Origin: a bacterium
GTDB lineage: Bacteria > JACPSX01
DNA: 14,234 nt
Assembly: GCA_035288405.1 (NCBI GenBank)
Contig: DATEAK010000276.1
Coordinates: 1-14,234, forward strand
Direction of reading: 5' to 3'
Shown piece by piece: positions 279 through 14,118 of the stretch; position 1 is the stretch's first letter; every line of letters begins with the position of its first letter. The notes below the pieces were generated by a model. That model was not told where the DNA came from, did not search any database, and saw nothing but the letters and a program-made list of their open reading frames with translations. A program made the position numbers and the translations under genes.

Positions 279-1403
279 TTAAGATTCCCGGCTGTGCAGC
301 CCCACAGTAGCCGTCCCTGTGACGGTAGTTTCCTTGCGCTGGTTTTCCGTCCACAGCTCGCAGTCGACCAGGCACTCGCTGCCCTCTTTGCGTTTGCCTG
401 TAATCCGTCCGCGACACCAGGTCGTATCTCCGAACAGGTTGGGACGCTCGATCTTCACCTGGAGACGTTTGAGAAACCCGTCATCCCCCATCCAATTCGT
501 CAGGAGGTGGCCCATCCAACTGATGCGTTGGTGGCCCACATCGTAGGCCCCGGGCATGCCGATGATTTCCCGGGCGACCCTCTCATCCAGGTGCCCCACG
601 GCAGCGTTGATGAGTTCGCCCTGGGCGTTGCGGTAAAACATCTTGTCGCCCTTATAGGGATCCAGATAGGATCGCTCCAGAGCCTTGAAGGGCGTAGGAT
701 AACCGAGGCCCGCCATGTAACAAACCATGTCCACGAGGTTCAGGGGACCTTTGACCACGGGAGTGATCAGGTCCCCCGCATTCACCTCTTCCCAGAATCG
801 GGTCTTGGATCCTCTCATTTCTTCGCGCAGAACGTCCTGGCGAATAGCTTCCAGTTGTTCCTCGGTGTAGGTCTGTCTGCGCGCCTCCTGGCGCATATGA
901 CCCTCGGCTCCAACCCGGGGAATGCGGAGTGTGCGTCCCAAAGCACGGGCAAGGAGCTTGCCGTCCTGCCGGGTGTAGGTAACTTCCCCCACCTGAATCA
1001 GGAAACGTTCCACTTTTTTCCCGCGATGTTCCTCTACGTCTACGATCCGCACGCATGGGGTAATGCCGTCACCGGCACGCGCCACATCGTAAAAAGTCCA
1101 ATCGGTTCCTCCGAAGATGAGCTGGATGCCTCCGAGCCCGGGGGCTACGATCGTCGTGTCAACGGTGTGCAGGAAAGTGGGCGGGGCAATCGTGCAGCCG
1201 TAAGGGCTTTTCTTGCCGTAATCCCGGCTGCACCAGAGAGGATTTTCGTCTCCGATTCCGTGGGCGTAGTGACGGATCGCGTCTTGACTCGCCTCCTCGT
1301 TCCATTGGTTTCCGGGTTTCGCTCGCACCACTTCCTGACCGATCATGGCGCGGGCTTCCTGAACCAGCTCGTCCGTCAAGGGAATTGGCTGGACACCTGA
1401 CAT
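279..1403 (-). CDS. MaoC-like / FAS1-type double hot-dog (R)-specific enoyl-CoA hydratase/dehydratase
   Basis: Track ORF is 279..1514. The likely true start is the internal ATG at 1403-1401 (MSGVQPIPLTDELVQEARAMIGQEV...), preceded by GGAGGAACCAAGTG. The ATG overlaps the IclR stop as TGATG. The ~374-aa product has an N-terminal non-catalytic hot-dog half and a C-terminal MaoC-like half (…GDDGFLKRLQVKIERPNLFGDTTWCRGRITGKRKE…). Confidence 0.75.
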   Translation of the reverse strand: MSGVQPIPLTDELVQEARAMIGQEVVRAKPGNQWNEEASQDAIRHYAHGIGDENPLWCSRDYGKKSPYGCTIAPPTFLHTVDTTIVAPGLGGIQLIFGGTDWTFYDVARAGDGITPCVRIVDVEEHRGKKVERFLIQVGEVTYTRQDGKLLARALGRTLRIPRVGAEGHMRQEARRQTYTEEQLEAIRQDVLREEMRGSKTRFWEEVNAGDLITPVVKGPLNLVDMVCYMAGLGYPTPFKALERSYLDPYKGDKMFYRNAQGELINAAVGHLDERVAREIIGMPGAYDVGHQRISWMGHLLTNWMGDDGFLKRLQVKIERPNLFGDTTWCRGRITGKRKEGSECLVDCELWTENQRKETTVTGTATVGLHSRES

Positions 1404-2323
1404 CACTTGGTTCCTCCGGTTGGGGTTAAACTTTTTGTTGCGGGGTTGAAAGCGGGGAAAACGAGCTTCTTGCCCGGGAATCCTATTTTCTGCGACAACT
1501 CGAGAGCCGCGCAAACAGCCGCCTGCCCGAGGGACTCGAAATCGCCGTCGAGGAACTGAGCAGCCGGCCTTCCAATGCCGATGGCACCCATCACCGCGCC
1601 GGATTGATCCAGCACCGGAGCAGCCACTGCCCTCACACCCGGAAGGGATTCGTTCCTGTTCGTGGCGTAACCTCTCCGGCGCACCCGTTCCAATTCTTGC
1701 AGAAGGAGCTTCGTGGAAACGATGGTCTCACGTGTGAAGGGACGAAGCGGGGATTTCTTCAGGAGCACTTTCACCTCAGCACCACTACATCCGGCCAGTA
1801 GAGCCTTTCCAATCGCGCCATAATGAATCGGACGCTGGTCCCCTTCGATGATGATCAGACGGACCTGGTCGGGGCTTTCAACGGCAGCCACGGTCACCTG
1901 GGTCAATTCCTCTCGATCGGCGACTCGGAAGAACACAGTGGCGCGATGGCGGGCGGCCACGGGCTTCAGGACGGGATTGGCCAGGTCACAGAGGTACTGA
2001 AAGTTGCGGACTCGCCTGCCCAGCTCGAACAGCTTGAGACCCAGGCAATACTTTCCGTTCGGTTCCTGTTGTTCCAGAAAGTGTCGCCCCACGAGCGTAC
2101 GCAGCGCTTTGTGCGCTCGGCTCTTGTGCAGCCCAAGACGACGGCTGATTTCGGTGACGCCCAGCTCTTTCTCGGGCCCGAGAAAGCATTCGAGGATGCG
2201 AAGGCCCACATCGAGCCCTTGGGCTAGATAAAGGGTCGTCTTCCGGCGACGAGGCGGTGAAGAAGTTGGCACTGAGTCCGTCCCCTCCGGGGGTAGAGAG
2301 TATAAGTGCAACTGCGATCCCAT
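1403..2323 (-). CDS. IclR-family transcriptional regulator
   Basis: N-terminal wHTH LAQGLDVGLRILECFLGPEKELGVTEISRRLGLHKSRAHKALRTLVGRHFLEQQ followed by an IclR-type C-terminal effector domain. Start is uncertain: no SD before ATG 2323. An internal GTG (residue 18) lies ~9 nt after GGAGGGG and is an alternative. Confidence 0.8.
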   Translation of the reverse strand: MGSQLHLYSLPPEGTDSVPTSSPPRRRKTTLYLAQGLDVGLRILECFLGPEKELGVTEISRRLGLHKSRAHKALRTLVGRHFLEQQEPNGKYCLGLKLFELGRRVRNFQYLCDLANPVLKPVAARHRATVFFRVADREELTQVTVAAVESPDQVRLIIIEGDQRPIHYGAIGKALLAGCSGAEVKVLLKKSPLRPFTRETIVSTKLLLQELERVRRRGYATNRNESLPGVRAVAAPVLDQSGAVMGAIGIGRPAAQFLDGDFESLGQAAVCAALELSQKIGFPGKKLVFPAFNPATKSLTPTGGTK

Positions 2324-2452
2324 CTGTTCTTGTATGGGAAAGCGAGTTTCGAGTTTAATCTTCTTGGCGCTGGATTGTAAACGGAAAAATTCAATGCCCC
2401 AACCCTATCCCAGAGGGAGAGGGAGAATCCATGTCCTGTCAAAATACGAGTC

Positions 2453-2526
2453 ATGGCCGCGGGCTCCTTGCGGTGGCATTTGTCGCAGTTCTCCTGGACG
2501 TTGTGGCCACCGAAACGGCGGCACAT
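2453..2526 (-). pseudogene. relic duplicate of the 3' end of the multihaem cytochrome gene (…GGHNVQENCDKCHRKEPAAM…)
   Basis: Nucleotides 2453-2526 are ~79% identical to 4139-4201, the 3' end of the cytochrome at 4106-4678, in the same orientation. Translation MCRRFGGHNVQENCDKCHRKEPAAM parallels ACASCHNTQENCQKCHRKQPTAM. A GGAGGAACT-ATG lies at 2526, but the downstream reading frame is low-complexity and runs into the IclR start region. It sits inside spurious track ORF 2224..2733. Confidence 0.4.
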
Positions 2527-2558
2527 AGTTCCTCCGCGGAAGGCCGCGGTAATCAGCC

Positions 2559-2587
2559 TTGACATTGCGCGGGCAAGGAAATAGAGT
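2559..2587 (+). promoter_or_regulatory. sigma70-like promoter candidate TTGACA-N17-TAGAGT upstream of the nucleotidyltransferase gene
   Basis: TTGACA at 2559-2564, a 17-nt spacer, then TAGAGT at 2582-2587, ~95 nt upstream of the 2684 start on the same strand. Sequence match only. Confidence 0.3.
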
Positions 2588-2683
2588 TGTTTCAAAGGAT
2601 TATGTTCGCGGATTGTTCCTGGTTGGAATGTGGGAACCGACGGCTGCGGGAATCGTGTTGGGAAGTGATCATCACTACGGGGG

Positions 2684-3037
2684 ATGCTTGTTGTGGCAAG
2701 ATCCAGGCAAGTGAAGAGTAGCCGGCCTCTCAAAGGGATTCTTCGGGAGCTTGCGCAGGCACTAAAAGACCGATACGGGGAGAAATTTGTGGGTCTCTGG
2801 CTCTATGGATCCCAGGCCCGCGGTCAGGCCCACGACCAATCAGACGTCGACCTTTTGTTGCTCCTGCGGGGAGAAGTCCGACCCTCAAAAGAAATTGACC
2901 GGATTGCCGACCTGCTGGCCGATTTTAACCTGCGGTACGGAGAACTCCTGTCGGTTCTCCCTGTACATGAGCAGACTTTCAAGAACGGCGACGGCCCTTT
3001 CTGGCGCAACGTGCGCCGGGAAGGCAAGGCCGCATGA
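2684..3037 (+). CDS. MntA-like minimal nucleotidyltransferase (Pol-beta superfamily), toxin-antitoxin-associated type
   Basis: Motif GSQARGQAHDQSDVDLLLLL matches the G-S-x(n)-D-x-D nucleotidyltransferase signature. Size is ~115 aa. The ATG at 2684 has a poor SD; GTG at 2693 preceded by GGGGGA is an alternative start. The stop overlaps the next gene as ATGA. Confidence 0.75.
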   Translation: MLVVARSRQVKSSRPLKGILRELAQALKDRYGEKFVGLWLYGSQARGQAHDQSDVDLLLLLRGEVRPSKEIDRIADLLADFNLRYGELLSVLPVHEQTFKNGDGPFWRNVRREGKAA

Positions 3038-3444
3038 TTGAACGGGAAGGCTTGATCCACAAGGCCCGGCGCTTCCTAATGAAGAAAGTACCGCCTAACG
3101 GAGCCCGGAGGAAAGATAACGGGATGCGTGCCGAATATGATTTCGCAGGCGGAATGCGCGGCAAGCACCATCGGGCCATGCAAGCCGGATATACAGTTAC
3201 GATTCATCAGGCGGATGGTACATCCGTCACTGAGGAGGTAAGACCTAAGGAAGGCGTAGTCATCCTAGCGCCAGATGTACGGGAGTACTTCCCGGACGCT
3301 GAGTCGGTGAACACAGCTTTGCGCTTGCTCATTAGGCTCATTCCTGACGAGCGTACCTCCGCTGCGAAAAGGGCGAAGAGTCGCGACGCGAGACGCCCGG
3401 ATGCCTTCCCCGGTGGCCGGAAATCGACCACGAAGAGGAGATAA
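3034..3444 (+). CDS. DUF4415/BrnA-like putative antitoxin-type protein
   Basis: The M-R-A-EYDF-AGG-M-RGK-H motif and …VVILAPDVREYFPDAESVNTALRLLIRL resemble the eYDFskakrGk / …v.irLd.dvleyf….iN.aLr… pattern of BrnA/DUF4415 proteins. The ATG at 3034 overlaps the upstream stop as ATGA. An internal ATG at 3124 (GGAGGA 11 nt upstream) would give a more typical ~106-aa product. No HEPN Rx4-6H motif is present, so it is not a HepT partner. Confidence 0.45.
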   Translation: MIEREGLIHKARRFLMKKVPPNGARRKDNGMRAEYDFAGGMRGKHHRAMQAGYTVTIHQADGTSVTEEVRPKEGVVILAPDVREYFPDAESVNTALRLLIRLIPDERTSAAKRAKSRDARRPDAFPGGRKSTTKRR

Positions 3445-3522
3445 GGGTAAATTGACTTCCGACTTATTTTCCAGGTCCAGGGGCTGGGTCAAAGGCCCTC
3501 GGTGAGATAGTGGAGGAGGACA

Positions 3523-3762
3523 ATGCCGAAGATTGAGGTAAACGAGGAGCAAATTCTGATTGCCCTGGAGCAGCTTTCTCCGGCGGCCAGACGGGTCGCA
3601 CTCGGCAAGCTGATTGGCGGCCTGGAAAGGCTCGACCGTCTGGTGGACCGAAACCGGGAAAAGATCGAGAGCATCTGTCGCGACCGAGGACTGGACTTTT
3701 CCCGACTCACGGAAGAAGAGCGCGAGGCACTGGTGGATGAGATTCTCCATACAGGTGCCTAG
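3523..3762 (+). CDS. small helical protein, putative antitoxin of the downstream PIN remnant
   Basis: Strong SD GGAGGAGGA directly before the ATG at 3523. The 79-aa product is charged, coiled-coil-like and has no TM. Its stop TAG at 3760-3762 is immediately followed by the GTG of the PIN fragment. Confidence 0.45.
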   Translation: MPKIEVNEEQILIALEQLSPAARRVALGKLIGGLERLDRLVDRNREKIESICRDRGLDFSRLTEEEREALVDEILHTGA

Positions 3763-3933
3763 GTGAAGGTTGTCCTGGACACCAACATCAATAAATTCCT
3801 CGAAACAGCTCAGGTCTCCGGCGCCACTTATATTATCTCTGGCGATCACCACCTTCTGAGTCTGGGAACATTTGCTAACATTTCTGTGATTCGAGCCCGC
3901 GCCTTTCTTGACACACTTGGTCCCAACGAGTAG
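3763..3933 (+). pseudogene. PIN-domain toxin remnant with in-frame internal deletion
   Basis: Starting from the GTG: VKVVLDTNI|NKFLETAQVSGATYIISGDHHLLSLGTFANISVIRARAFL…*. The N-terminal vvlDTN strand is fused directly to the C-terminal DNKFLE…A.YlvTgDkdLL……iltP.eFl segment of PIN_3-type toxins. About 80 central residues, including the catalytic acidic residues, are missing. At 56 aa it is below the track threshold. Confidence 0.5.
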
Positions 3934-4105
3934 AGGTTGCACAGAAGTATTTGCGGGTTCTTGATAAACTGGTGCGGGCGTACGGTCGGGCAAACCTGTC
4001 CATAACCGTCGATGGTGGAAAGTTTCGACAGTGAAACACCTTCCCTTTGGCCTCTTTCCTGGGGCAGGAGGAAAGGCTTCAGGAAAAGCAGACGGGTGAA
4101 GCGGT

Positions 4106-4678
4106 CTAGCTCGCTGATTTGTTCCCGGCTGCCGGGGCCATGGCTGTGGGCTGCTTGCGGTGACACTTCTGGCAGTTTTCCTGGGTATTGTGGCAGCTTG
4201 CACATGCCTCCATGGAAGGCCGGTTCGTCGGTGTGATGCGGGCGTCGTGGGCGATGTTCACGTGACATTGCACGCAGGCGACTCCCATGTCGCCGGCGTG
4301 AAGCTTGTGAGGAATCTTGATCCCCTACACGTTGACTCGCATGATTCTGGGCTCGCCGTTTCCCACTTCCTTGTGGCAACTGCGGCACTTCTTGTCCACG
4401 TCACCGGGATCCGCTGAGAAGCTCTGCGGGAAACCTTGAGCAATGGGAAACTTGGCCTTGCCGTGGCAGCCGATGCAGGGAATTTTGGAGGTGTGCCCTG
4501 TAGCGGAGACTGCAAGAGGTGTGGCCCCCTGACCGTGGCAGGTCAGGCAAAAGCTCGGATTGCCGGAGGAGTAGCGGATCAGAGACAGAGTTCCCACGAT
4601 ACTGAGAACGATCGCAGCCACGCCTCCTAGGAGGATGGGGCCGCGCCAGCGATGAGGGATGCGGATCCCGGGATTCAT
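4106..4678 (-). CDS. membrane-anchored NapC/NirT/NrfH-like multihaem cytochrome c (six CxxCH), interrupted by an in-frame TAG at 4325-4327
   Basis: Track ORFs 4325..4678 and 4106..4288 are in the same frame, separated by a single TAG (4327-4325) plus 12 sense codons (…RIMRVNV*GIKIPHKLHAGDMGVACVQCH…). There is an N-terminal TM helix, an SFCLTCH first-haem motif typical of NapC/NrfH, and then CIGCH, CRSCH | CVQCH, CASCH, CQKCH. SD GGAGGAAAACAATA precedes the ATG at 4678. There is no SD before the internal Met at 4288. Confidence 0.75.
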
Positions 4679-6953: not shown

Positions 6954-7952
6954 TTATTCACTCGCTGAATGGCTGCCGTTGGCGTCCGGCTTTTCACCGT
7001 TGCCGCTGTTGCTGTTCGTAATCTTGTTGAGCGCGGTCACGCCCATGAGAGCTCCCAGCCCCATGGTTTCGACGGCCGAGCTCGGTACGATGACCATGGA
7101 GCCCCTCTCCTTGAGGCCTTCGTAGAGCATGTTCATGGCTCGCAGGTGAAGGGCCGTGGGATTATCCTTGTAGGATTCGGCTGCCTCGGCGAACATCTGG
7201 GCAATCTGAGTCTCCGATCGTCCGAGGATCACTCGGGCCTGACGCTCTCTCTCTGCCTGGGCCTGGATCGACAGGGCGTCCTGGAGAGAGGCCGGGATGA
7301 TCACGTCCCGGATCTCCACGGAAAGAACCTGAAGGCCCCAGCCGTCGGTGCGCTTGTCAATGAGGTTCTTGATCTGCTCGTCGATATTCTCACGCCCCAC
7401 GAGCATATCGGAGAGCTCGCTCTTGCCGATCACATCCCGCAGAGCCGTCTGGGATGCCCAGCTGATCACGTCGTAGTAGTCGGTGACTTCCAGTGCCGCT
7501 TTTTCAGGGTTGACGACTTTCCAGAAGCAGACGGCGTCCACGTCTACGGGGACGTTGTCTTTGGTCAAGGTTTCCTCGGCCCGGAAGCCGGTAGCGGTTA
7601 GCCGCAGGTCGATCCAGTAGGGAATCGTGTCAATCAGGGGGAAGATGAAAAAGAGGCCCGGGCCCGCCATCCTATGGAATTTCCCCAAGCGCAGGACGAT
7701 GGCGCGCTCCCACTGAGTCGCGACCTTCAGAGCCAGAAGGATAAACACGCCCACCGCCAGCAGAATCCCAGTAGGAATCGGGTTGTTTGTCAGGACGAAG
7801 GCCCCTACTCCGAACAGGGCGCACGCCACAAACAAGGTGGCCGAGAGGAGATTCGGGCGCAGCGTACCGGCCCGGATCTTCTGGGCCTCGAACTCATCCT
7901 GCTGTCTTTTGGCGGCGCGCCGGATCTCTTGCTTGGTACTCGGTTCCATCAT
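6954..7952 (-). CDS. SPFH/band-7 (stomatin/HflKC-like) membrane protein
   Basis: One N-terminal TM followed by the characteristic ATQWERAIVLRLGKF…GPGLFFIFPLID SPFH core and a coiled-coil Q/E/R-rich region. Strong SD AAGGAGGAA sits 4-5 nt before ATGATG at 7952. It lies between the NrfD and catalytic-subunit genes. Confidence 0.85.
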   Translation of the reverse strand: MMEPSTKQEIRRAAKRQQDEFEAQKIRAGTLRPNLLSATLFVACALFGVGAFVLTNNPIPTGILLAVGVFILLALKVATQWERAIVLRLGKFHRMAGPGLFFIFPLIDTIPYWIDLRLTATGFRAEETLTKDNVPVDVDAVCFWKVVNPEKAALEVTDYYDVISWASQTALRDVIGKSELSDMLVGRENIDEQIKNLIDKRTDGWGLQVLSVEIRDVIIPASLQDALSIQAQAERERQARVILGRSETQIAQMFAEAAESYKDNPTALHLRAMNMLYEGLKERGSMVIVPSSAVETMGLGALMGVTALNKITNSNSGNGEKPDANGSHSASE

Positions 7953-12180: not shown

Positions 12181-14118
12181 CTATGCAGACACCGCAGCCA
12201 CGCCGGCCTGCACCGGAAGGCGAAAGATCAGAGCCGTCCCTCCTTCACCGTTGCCGCTCTCAATCCAGATGTTTCCCCCGTGCCTCTGGATGATCCCGTA
12301 ACAGATGGAGAGACCGAGTCCCGTCCCTTTATCTTTGGTCGTGTAAAAGGGCTCGAAAACTTTGGAGTGCAGTGCCTTGGGAATGCCGGGCCCGTTGTCT
12401 TTTACCGTCACAACGACCCAGTCTAGATCGAGTGCCCGGGTAATGACCTCGATCCGTCCTCCGGCATGAAATGCCTGGACGGAGTTCTGCATGACGTTCA
12501 CCAGAACCTGCTGGATCTGACTGCGGTCGCAGATAACCCGGGGAAGATCGGGTTCCAAGTGCAAGTGACACTCTACATTATTAATACGGATCTCGTTGGC
12601 CAAAATGCTATTGGCGGCCAGGACGATCTGATTCATATCGTTGGGTTCCATGTCCGTGTTGGTGCTGCGAGTGTAGTCCAGCAGATCCGAGACGATCTTC
12701 TTGCTGCGCACCACGTTGTCCACGATCTTGCGGATGTTCTTGTAATGAGGATCCTCGGGGGCGGTTTCCTCCAGGACGAGCTTGGAATAGAGGAGGATGT
12801 TTCCCAAGGGATTGTTGATCTCATGAGCCACGCCGGCGGCGAGCTGCCCCGTGGCTGCCAGGCGCTCGGAGTGGATGAGCTGCTTTTGCAGTGATTCCCG
12901 GCTCTTCTCCTCGGTGAGATCGTGGGTAATATCCACATAGGCCAGGGTGTGGTCGTGCTCGTCTCGCAGGCTGCTGATGTTGACAAAAGCAGGGAAAGTT
13001 TTACCGTTCTTGCGCAGAAGCTGAATCTCGCTCCGGTAGGATCCTTCCAGTTCAACGGCATTCCAGACTCGACGCTGCGTCTCTCCCAGGAGGGAGTAAG
13101 GCTCACCGGTTAGTTCCATAGCACCGTAGCCGAGCATCTCCTCGGCGCCGTGACTGAAGAAAAGGATGGTGCCGTTGGGATCTATGACGATGATGGACTC
13201 GCGCACGTTGCCAAGCACCCGCTCCAGGAGTTCCTTTTTGTCCCGAATCTCGATGGAGCGTTTGAGGGCGTCGGCCATCTCGTTGAAGGATTGGGCCAGA
13301 ACTCCGATCTCGTCTTCTCCTTCGCCCAGAACTTTCCTGTCGAAATCCCCCTTGCTGAAGAACTTCGTCAAGTCCACGAGCTTTTTCAGGCGGTTGATCA
13401 CCAGGCGGTTCAACAGGAGACTCAGGACGATGACCGCGGTGATGATCATGAGTCCCATGGAGTAGAGAACCTCTCTGAATTTCGTGGCGATTTGCTTCTC
13501 AATGTCGGTCATGGAGAAGTCGGTGATGAGGACCCCGTTGATCTTGGTCAGGGGACTGTGACAGCCGTAGCACTCGGGTTCGTTGAAGATGGGGTTCACG
13601 TTGCGGAAGATTTGCTCGCCGTTCTCTTCCTTATATATGACGGTCTTGTTACGCACTTCGGGGCTATACCGGTGGCAGATCTGGCAGGTGTAATCGTTCT
13701 GATTGAGGATCTCACCGACCCGTCTCATCTCCGGGGACATCTTGATCTCCCCGCGCTTGTCCACCAGGAAAATGTTGTCTACCCCCTTCTGCTTGCCGAC
13801 GGTTTCGATGATGTAGCGGGCCTCCTCCAGATCGCGGTTGATCATGGCGTGCTTGAGGCTCCCCTTGATGACGTCGCTTAAGTAATGGGTGCTGGAATCC
13901 CGCAGGTTTTCGATGAGGTCGTGGCGAAAGCGGAACACCTGGTAGCTGTAGAAGACCGACATGATGGCCACGATGGCCACCACGATCCCCACAGTTGCCT
14001 TGAAGCGTAAGCTTTGATGAAACCTCTTGATCCTCAAAGGCCAACCTATGGATGCAGAACGAACTTCGAACGGTTGACCCCTCCCAATGGGGAATACATG
14101 TAGTCTCTTTGGGGACAA
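12181..14118 (-). CDS. sensor histidine kinase: TM, periplasmic domain with two c-type haem motifs, TM, HAMP, PAS, HisKA, HATPase_c
   Basis: TM1 ATVGIVVAIVAIMSVFYSY. ~160-aa periplasmic region containing CQICH (13686-13672) and CYGCH (13572-13558). TM2 VLYSMGLMIITAVIVLSLLL. Then HAMP, PAS, the H-box AAGVAHEINNPL, and N/G1/G2 boxes (DNGPGIP…GTGLGLSI). The track start at 14118 is TTG; the true start is uncertain. Confidence 0.9.
   Translation of the reverse strand: MSPKRLHVFPIGRGQPFEVRSASIGWPLRIKRFHQSLRFKATVGIVVAIVAIMSVFYSYQVFRFRHDLIENLRDSSTHYLSDVIKGSLKHAMINRDLEEARYIIETVGKQKGVDNIFLVDKRGEIKMSPEMRRVGEILNQNDYTCQICHRYSPEVRNKTVIYKEENGEQIFRNVNPIFNEPECYGCHSPLTKINGVLITDFSMTDIEKQIATKFREVLYSMGLMIITAVIVLSLLLNRLVINRLKKLVDLTKFFSKGDFDRKVLGEGEDEIGVLAQSFNEMADALKRSIEIRDKKELLERVLGNVRESIIVIDPNGTILFFSHGAEEMLGYGAMELTGEPYSLLGETQRRVWNAVELEGSYRSEIQLLRKNGKTFPAFVNISSLRDEHDHTLAYVDITHDLTEEKSRESLQKQLIHSERLAATGQLAAGVAHEINNPLGNILLYSKLVLEETAPEDPHYKNIRKIVDNVVRSKKIVSDLLDYTRSTNTDMEPNDMNQIVLAANSILANEIRINNVECHLHLEPDLPRVICDRSQIQQVLVNVMQNSVQAFHAGGRIEVITRALDLDWVVVTVKDNGPGIPKALHSKVFEPFYTTKDKGTGLGLSICYGIIQRHGGNIWIESGNGEGGTALIFRLPVQAGVAAVSA

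Follow-up and report, generated by a model that had tools for sequence, protein, structure and literature searches.

Direct repeats at the 3' end of a multihaem cytochrome gene as probable recombination junctions of a small integrase-less cassette

Why should the 3' end of a respiratory cytochrome gene occur a second time, some 1.6 kb downstream of the gene? The question is raised by contig DATEAK010000276.1 of an uncultured bacterium, which was analyzed over its whole length of 14,234 nucleotides (nt) and is called the window here. In this contig a multihaem cytochrome gene, the last gene of a molybdopterin (Mo) oxidoreductase operon, is followed by ~1.6 kb that carries plus-strand genes only, with a copy of the cytochrome 3' end on either side, and then by the gene of an IclR-family regulator. 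The initial annotation of the locus proposed that an element had integrated into the 3' end of the cytochrome gene and supplied a replacement end, leaving the displaced original end behind. Comparison with related contigs led us to a modified explanation: the repeats are probably the recombination junctions of a 1.69-kb integrase-less cassette, inserted 33 nt short of the stop codon of the cytochrome gene. The features concerned are listed in Table 1.

Table 1. Coordinates of the features discussed, in the window unless L001 (contig JACPSX010000092) is given.
Feature	Position	Strand	Basis or remarks
IclR-family regulator gene, distal chromosomal flank	1403-2323	-	Pfam IclR_C, HTH_IclR
Promoter-like site of the IclR gene	2381-2352	-	promoter scan
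Left repeat, attR-like cassette-borne module	2447..2596	-	promoter arm and decayed cytochrome 3' end
Sigma-70-like promoter TTGACA-17-TAGAGT in the module	2559..2587	+	10/12 consensus matches; directed toward the cassette genes
Cassette gene 1, MNT-type nucleotidyltransferase (antitoxin-like)	2684..3037	+	Pfam NTP_transf_2, 2.6e-8, above cut-off
136-aa open reading frame	3034..3444	+	no Pfam or NCBIfam match
79-aa open reading frame	3523..3762	+	no Pfam or NCBIfam match; kept in L001 at 13286-13537
56-aa remnant of a PIN-family toxin	3763..3933	+	TIGR00305, E 1.9e-4
Non-coding or degraded spacer between convergent genes	3934..4105	.	BLAST map against L001
Cytochrome tail, last 10 codons (APAAGNKSAS) and TAG stop	4106..4138	-	putatively supplied by the cassette
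Right repeat, attB/attL-like resident segment in the cytochrome gene	4139..4222	-	haem motifs 5 and 6; end ...CACCGCAAGCAGCCCACAGCCATG
Multihaem cytochrome gene, six CxxCH motifs	4106..4678	-	Pfam Cytochrome_C7, Cytochrom_c3_2, NapC/NirT
c1, in the cytochrome gene of L001	L001 10414-10512		
c2	L001 14242-14419		
c3	L001 17303-17480		
c4, only the arm surviving	L001 18865-18921		adjoins the orthologue of the region upstream of IclR

The repeats were described initially as ~70-bp imperfect copies in the same orientation, ~79% identical, and a local alignment of the two regions was suggested as a check. This alignment confirmed the description. Without gaps, 45 of 56 nt (80%) were identical between 2452-2507 and 4139-4194, which makes the pair the top repeat family in the window, and the score was 57, compared with 17.1 +/- 2.4 (maximum 33) in 500 shuffles. 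When gaps were allowed the homology extended over 2452-2546 and 4139-4222, with a score of 58 against 17.0 +/- 2.1 (maximum 26) for shuffled sequence. These controls rule out a chance similarity. The peptides read from the two copies on the minus strand were also recovered as first described (GHNVQENCDKCHRKEPAAM and CHNTQENCQKCHRKQPTAM), and an nhmmer profile of the repeat module, used to score all module copies, matched 2447-2596 at an E value of 3e-54 and 4107-4222 at 2e-14. The same-population contigs available for comparison were five related ones from the Joint Genome Institute (JGI) and ten from ENA. Independent assemblies from both collections cross the left junction (L008, L010, L011, L013, L015, L016, and L018) and the right junction (L007, L013, and L015-L019) at 96-99.7% identity. 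Since independent contigs cross both junctions, the structure is real and an assembly artefact is ruled out.

The origin of the left copy was addressed with contig JACPSX010000092 (L001) of a Candidatus Tectomicrobia metagenome-assembled genome (MAG), which was found by a genome scan with the Mo-oxidoreductase and shares about 87% nucleotide identity with the window operon. In L001 there are four repeat copies, c1 in the cytochrome gene and c2 to c4 in the longer stretch behind it. They bound three cassettes of about 3.9, 3.1, and 1.5 kb, and all cassette genes are antisense to the cytochrome gene. Cassette A contains five small genes together with the antitoxin-like open reading frame (ORF), the PIN remnant, and the MNT gene known from the window. 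In cassette B a BsuBI/PstI endonuclease (E 1e-58) and an Eco57I/N6 methylase are accompanied by a 96-aa ORF, and cassette C consists of a 199-aa ORF, by eye a membrane protein, and a 109-aa ORF with a sub-threshold match to CarboxypepD_reg. The GC contents of the three cassettes are 54-55%, 60%, and 49%, respectively, compared with 61% for the operon. Cassettes B and C, which are bounded by c2, c3, and c4, are absent from the window. The search for an empty site among relatives, as suggested at the outset, gave a divided answer: the site is variable, since the window has a single cassette and L001 has three, but an empty site was found in no relative. Because the relative holds three such cassettes in a row, the site looks like a recombination hot-spot for defence genes.

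Copies c2 and c3 and the left copy of the window share a module of ~178 nt. In the orientation of the cytochrome gene, it begins with an arm of about 50-90 nt that has no relation to the gene, continues with ~95 nt similar to the cytochrome 3' end, in which a net length difference of 11 nt destroys the fifth CxxCH motif, and closes in c2 and c3 with a 33-nt tail of 10 codons and a stop, at which the homology stops. The left repeat is about 91% identical to c2 and c3 over 143 nt, and the right repeat is the orthologue of c1. Over a core of 57 nt, identity among the module copies is 89-93%, across cassettes and both species, but their identity to resident gene copies is only 77-84%. The cores of the gene copies group by host. 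The left copy is consequently not the displaced original gene end that had been supposed; the module copies form a lineage of their own, with a shared length difference and a shared promoter arm, and the left copy belongs to it. What was truly displaced would be only the tail of 33 nt, which is kept in c2 and c3 and not in the window, where the left repeat is cut off at GCCATG (2452) and its homology is lost at GCCATG|ACT.

The arm contains a sigma-70-like promoter whose hexamers and 17-nt spacing are invariant in 4/4 arms (window, c2, c3, and c4), while the spacer itself is variable. Its activity is predicted from these sequence features. The hexamers are kept even in c4, where the arm is 74% identical and adjoins L001 18991-19173, the orthologue of the IclR upstream region. 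The insertion is old, as the island and both repeats predate the split between the window species and L001.

If the cassette brings in the end of the gene, the last codons should follow the cassette and not the gene body. The right copy, described as the real 3' end of the cytochrome gene, does lie inside the gene but is not its very end, because 10 further codons and the stop come after it (4106-4138). Cytochromes of 188-190 aa are intact in L001, in L005, and in all same-species contigs, and among these the tails, always 10 codons long, differ with the neighbouring cassette. L005 is the only more distant relative with sequence downstream of the gene; its cytochrome is 72% identical, and a convergent HTH_3/HTH_31 (Xre-type) gene, which we read as HicB-like, follows before the contig ends. 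Within the population, L012 matches the window at 98.9% identity for 10 kb and then carries another tail right after GCCATGGC. This tail (APAVSGKSAG*; at the nucleotide level GCTCCGGCTGTTTCAGGGAAATCGGCGGGGTGA) is nearest to the c1 tail of L001, and the contig ends at the stop codon. Furthermore, two cytochrome haplotypes occur in the species of the window, 8-16% divergent in 4140-4300 and 0% below 4139, so that the tail is the same in both and the adjacent core differs by 9%. The switch of tail in L012 and the shared tail of the haplotypes support the proposal that the last codons are supplied by the element.

The alignment of the window with L001 ends at position 4129. Four breakpoints fall at GCCATG(GC): that of the left copy in the window, those between the window and L012 and between the window and L001 c1, and the end of the haplotype divergence. 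All coincide with the end of CACCGCAAGGAGCCCACGGCCATGGC, and no other block shared by gene and module is identical over so great a length (c1 compared with c3). As the last 10 codons switch independently of the gene body, the crossover was placed at ...CACCGCAAGGAGCCCACGGCCATGGC, 33 nt before the stop.

Three observations on the cytochrome gene stand beside these results. First, L004, L012, and L014 are independent assemblies that end at the cytochrome stop codon or about 40 nt past it, a pattern that a variety of cassettes behind the gene in this community would produce; the cassette explanation would account for population assemblies breaking at this codon. Second, the haplotypes also diverge by 22% at 4501-4600 and by about 0-1% outside both patches. 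Because the non-window haplotype is nearer to L001 in the stretches compared, the window allele looks like a recombinant mosaic. Gene conversion by the left copy was ruled out as the source of the divergent haplotype, since both haplotypes are equally far from that copy (79% and 81%). Third, an in-frame TAG at 4325-4327 on the minus strand splits the window cytochrome into ORFs of 117 and 60 aa, the former on record under locus tag VJM80_09270. L001 and every same-species contig examined, including L017-L019 of the same haplotype, have CAG (Gln) at this position. The TAG is unique to the window contig and lies away from the exchanged gene tail; it reflects either a nonsense mutation of this strain or an error in the consensus.

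How could such an arrangement arise? We favour the tandem accretion of att-flanked, integrase-less cassettes that resemble cis-mobilizable elements (CIMEs) and each carry a replacement gene tail. A cassette module would comprise a promoter arm driving the cassette genes, which run antisense to the cytochrome gene, the decayed 3' end of ~95 nt, and the tail of 10 codons. A circular cassette, the intermediate that we infer, would recombine reciprocally with the gene at the block CACCGCAAGGAGCCCACGGCCATGGC. The gene would keep its own body and gain 10 codons and a stop from the cassette, and the pseudo-3' end of the cassette, fused to the old displaced tail, would be left at the far side. Repeated events would stack the cassettes, with the newest beside the gene and the oldest and most decayed beside IclR; the most decayed copy, c4, is indeed the one farthest from the gene. 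The window would hold a single cassette whose distal copy has lost its tail by deletion. Site-specific integration would use the module block GGCCATGGCC, the empty site would be expected to read as the gene core ...GCCATG followed by ACTCGTATTTTGACAGG, and the junction of the circular cassette as TGCCACCGCAAGGAGCCCGCGGCCATG followed by GCCCCGGCAGCCGGGAAC. The site-specific recombinase would act in trans or would have been lost, the cassettes then being decayed islands as in CIMEs.

Islands at the 3' ends of tRNA, tmRNA, and housekeeping genes bring a surrogate 3' end, as Salmonella genomic island 1 (SGI1) does at trmE. They leave the displaced copy at the far end, carry defence and toxin-antitoxin (TA) cargo, and encode their own tyrosine integrase beside the att site. 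The cytochrome cassettes would be like SGI1-type islands in gene reconstitution, in the copy left at the far end, and in cargo, but have no tyrosine integrase. When the sizeable ORFs of cassettes and flanks were all scanned with Pfam, on either strand, no recombinase domain was found, and no integrase, relaxase, or conjugation gene lies inside the cassettes.

In streptococci, CIMEs and accretion arrays occupy the 3' ends of fda, rpsI, rpmG, and rplL; their sizes are 1.2-13 kb and the most decayed unit of a tandem array lies farthest from the target gene (PMC7563491). The arrangement described here agrees with theirs in having direct att repeats on both sides of the element, of which one lies within the 3' end of a conserved gene that is still intact, in the lack of integrase, relaxase, and conjugation genes, in the adaptive or defence cargo, in overlapping sizes (1.5-3.9 kb here), and in tandem arrays with decay farthest from the gene (PMC7563491). 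It differs in that no integrative and conjugative or integrative and mobilizable element, and no integrase, is known for the site, that the repeat consists of ~130 nt of imperfect gene homology plus a promoter arm of ~50 nt instead of a short identical core, and that the same promoter arm stands beside unrelated cargo in every cassette. The host, unlike streptococci, belongs to an uncultured lineage related to Tectomicrobia, and the gene targeted here encodes a respiratory multihaem cytochrome.

The orphan arrays of rhs, cdiA, and mafB are alike in layout, and the likeness is one of layout only: 3' fragments in the same orientation are repeated downstream, each bounding a small cassette (PMC3967940). 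Exchange there is thought to be homology-based, with a variable toxin domain and an immunity protein in the cassette (PMC3967940). Here, by contrast, the main gene encodes a multihaem cytochrome and no polymorphic toxin, only a tail of 10 residues varies, and the gene fragments have decayed. The cargo of restriction-modification (RM), TA, and small genes lies on the opposite strand and has no relation to the cytochrome.

If the favoured explanation is true, a respiratory cytochrome gene is the docking site at which small TA and RM cassettes are stacked in an uncultured groundwater and soil lineage, and the known att-flanked islands would gain both a new target gene and a cassette-like form of unusual compactness. 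The 26-nt site and the 178-nt module could then be used to seek the recombinase and further arrays, and annotators should treat the last 10 codons of the cytochrome gene as exchangeable.

Several results weigh against a site-specific cassette. No recombinase domain was found in or near any cassette, flanks included (14-20 kb). None of the available contigs (5 JGI and 10 ENA) contains an empty site, an excised circle, or a hybrid junction. Nor was an element found that bears an integrase and shares the site, with viral, plasmid, and phage collections giving no match. The module was seen in two species-level lineages only, and the independent events are few. Where the extra 2.6 kb of L001 meets the shared TA part there is no module copy, so some of the differences are ordinary indels. 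Finally, the breakpoints coincide with the longest block of module/gene identity, the same spot that homologous recombination predicts.

This last point leads to the strongest of the alternatives, which we consider less likely than the favoured explanation. The same topology could be reached without a dedicated recombinase, by a single RecA-mediated crossover of the Campbell type in the ~26-nt block and by excision between repeats, the module acting as a portable homology anchor and promoter. The lack of a recombinase gene in 14-20 kb, the position of the breakpoints within the longest identical block, and the divergence seen within one species inside the cytochrome gene, which is mosaic and resembles the outcome of recombination, all agree with this, as do the folds of the copies, which have no strong site-like structure (z from -1.9 to +0.7). 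However, 26 nt of identity amid DNA of ~80% similarity is a poor substrate for RecA. In addition, the module core is 89-93% conserved between unrelated cassettes with no clear coding constraint (synonymous to non-synonymous changes about 1:2), which suggests selection on a DNA site.

A bolder form of the cassette explanation, an undescribed system in which the 178-nt module is the recombination site and a recombinase encoded elsewhere in the genome stacks small defence or TA cassettes, each with a promoter of its own, appears doubtful. Its logic would be integron-like, with a site that mimics the 3' end of a host gene and no linked integrase platform. The same ~90-nt promoter arm beside 3-4 unrelated cargos is poorly explained by the independent decay of larger islands; this arm and the very small size of the cassettes leave room for a true cassette system.

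An improbable alternative dispenses with a mobile element altogether, and would have the cytochrome 3' end duplicated and deleted in local segmental events, with the intervening genes brought in by unrelated indels. The island and both repeats are common to the window species and L001 and hence old, and indels without repeats are known at the locus, namely a 216-nt polymorphism, the 2.6-kb block, and a deletion in the IclR gene of L001. These facts fit local events, but three cassettes with unrelated cargo and different GC have the same module at their ends, the module copies constitute a separate lineage, marked by the promoter arm and the length difference that they share, and the gene tails switch independently of the body within one species. 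Local duplication had been mentioned as an alternative in the initial annotation as well; the unrelated cargo and the differing GC of the cassettes make it unlikely.

An integron-like array (an attC cluster without integrase) or Xer/dif modules would suit small cassettes in one orientation, without internal recombinase, presumably newest beside the insertion point, and with TA and defence cargo, TA genes being common in integron cassettes. It is very improbable for a repeat homologous to coding sequence, with no intI, attI, or Pc nearby and with a promoter-like site in each cassette, where integron cassettes are mostly promoterless. The attC R''/R' boxes (GTTRRRY / RYYYAAC) were absent from every copy, the z values of the copy folds gave no convincing attC-like hairpin, and an intI-attI-Pc platform was found neither in the window nor in L001. 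The best match to a XerD arm had 4-5 mismatches in 11, and E. coli dif had at least 14 mismatches in 28 against the module, although only the E. coli consensus was used. With neither motifs nor hairpin, a reading as integron attC or as dif was rejected.

Further searches for the true target and for more copies were made. No tRNA, tmRNA, or Rfam family was found, and a known RNA was therefore rejected as the true target. A 21-mer of the promoter arm and a degenerate 24-mer of the core had 0 matches in viral contigs, and a blastn search of plasmids and phages with the island gave no match. In JGI metagenomes the core 24-mer recovered five same-population contigs and one chance match in a high-GC nuoD region (L006), and a profile of the module pseudo-ORF searched against 5.8 billion proteins yielded no candidate. 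Exact look-up found no record for the Mo-oxidoreductase or for a 268-aa IclR, and for the 79-aa ORF it led only to one contig already known.

The gene map of the window cassette agrees with the earlier description of TA-like and degraded genes on the strand opposite to the flanks. The nucleotidyltransferase (2684-3037) also matched NCBIfam MntA at 1.9e-7, under the curated cut-off. The 136-aa ORF behind it is probably a fusion of gene remnants. It is created by the 216-nt segment at 3228-3443, which is polymorphic for presence or absence inside the island: the segment is present in the window, L011, L017, L018, and L007/L025, and is replaced by ~16 nt in L010, L013, L015, L016, and L001, where a shorter remnant stands in place of the fusion ORF (a 62-aa ORF in L001 and a called gene of 73 aa in L013/L015/L016). 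By eye, the inserted part (…VREYFPDAESVNTALRLLIRL…) reads like the C-terminus of an antitoxin. From its position, the 79-aa ORF is a putative antitoxin for the PIN remnant, whose match to TIGR00305 scored 21.7 bits (cut-off 29.15) and covers only the C-terminal 31 profile positions. The spacer at 3934-4105 has no counterpart in L001, where 2.6 kb with five genes are found instead; it contains a long hairpin at ~4038-4089 (RNA fold of -29.9 kcal/mol, z -2.0, minus strand).

Two candidates for other neighbours of the cytochrome gene were rejected. The cassette next to the gene in L012 was sought through a 205-aa lipoprotein-like ORF, but the relatives obtained are from other phyla and 70% identical or less, and thus do not represent the same cassette. 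Bases 1-938 of L017, which carry a ProA-like gene, belong to a scaffold with Ns that is probably chimeric. The lipoprotein-like ORF itself lies at L001 10695-11610 together with an 89-aa ORF, and the two form a widespread conserved pair (L020-L024, 52-70% identity, including a Bacteroidota MAG). At each of four loci inspected, a patatin-like phospholipase gene lies immediately upstream of the pair.

On the distal flank, L001 18991-19933 corresponds to window 691-2349, and most of IclR (window 1425-2165) is gone in L001; its upstream region and first ~50 codons remain, adjoining the MaoC-like gene. The minus strand of the window encodes a MaoC-like protein, IclR, the cytochrome, the molybdopterin oxidoreductase, an SPFH protein, NrfD, a 4Fe-4S protein, response regulators, and a histidine kinase. 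The SPFH/Band-7 gene (6954-7952) lies inside the Mo-oxidoreductase operon, between the genes of the NrfD membrane subunit and of the catalytic subunit. This order (4Fe-4S, NrfD, SPFH, Mo subunit, six-haem cytochrome) is kept in L001, L004, L012, and L014, and looks unusual for Psr/Nrf-type complexes.

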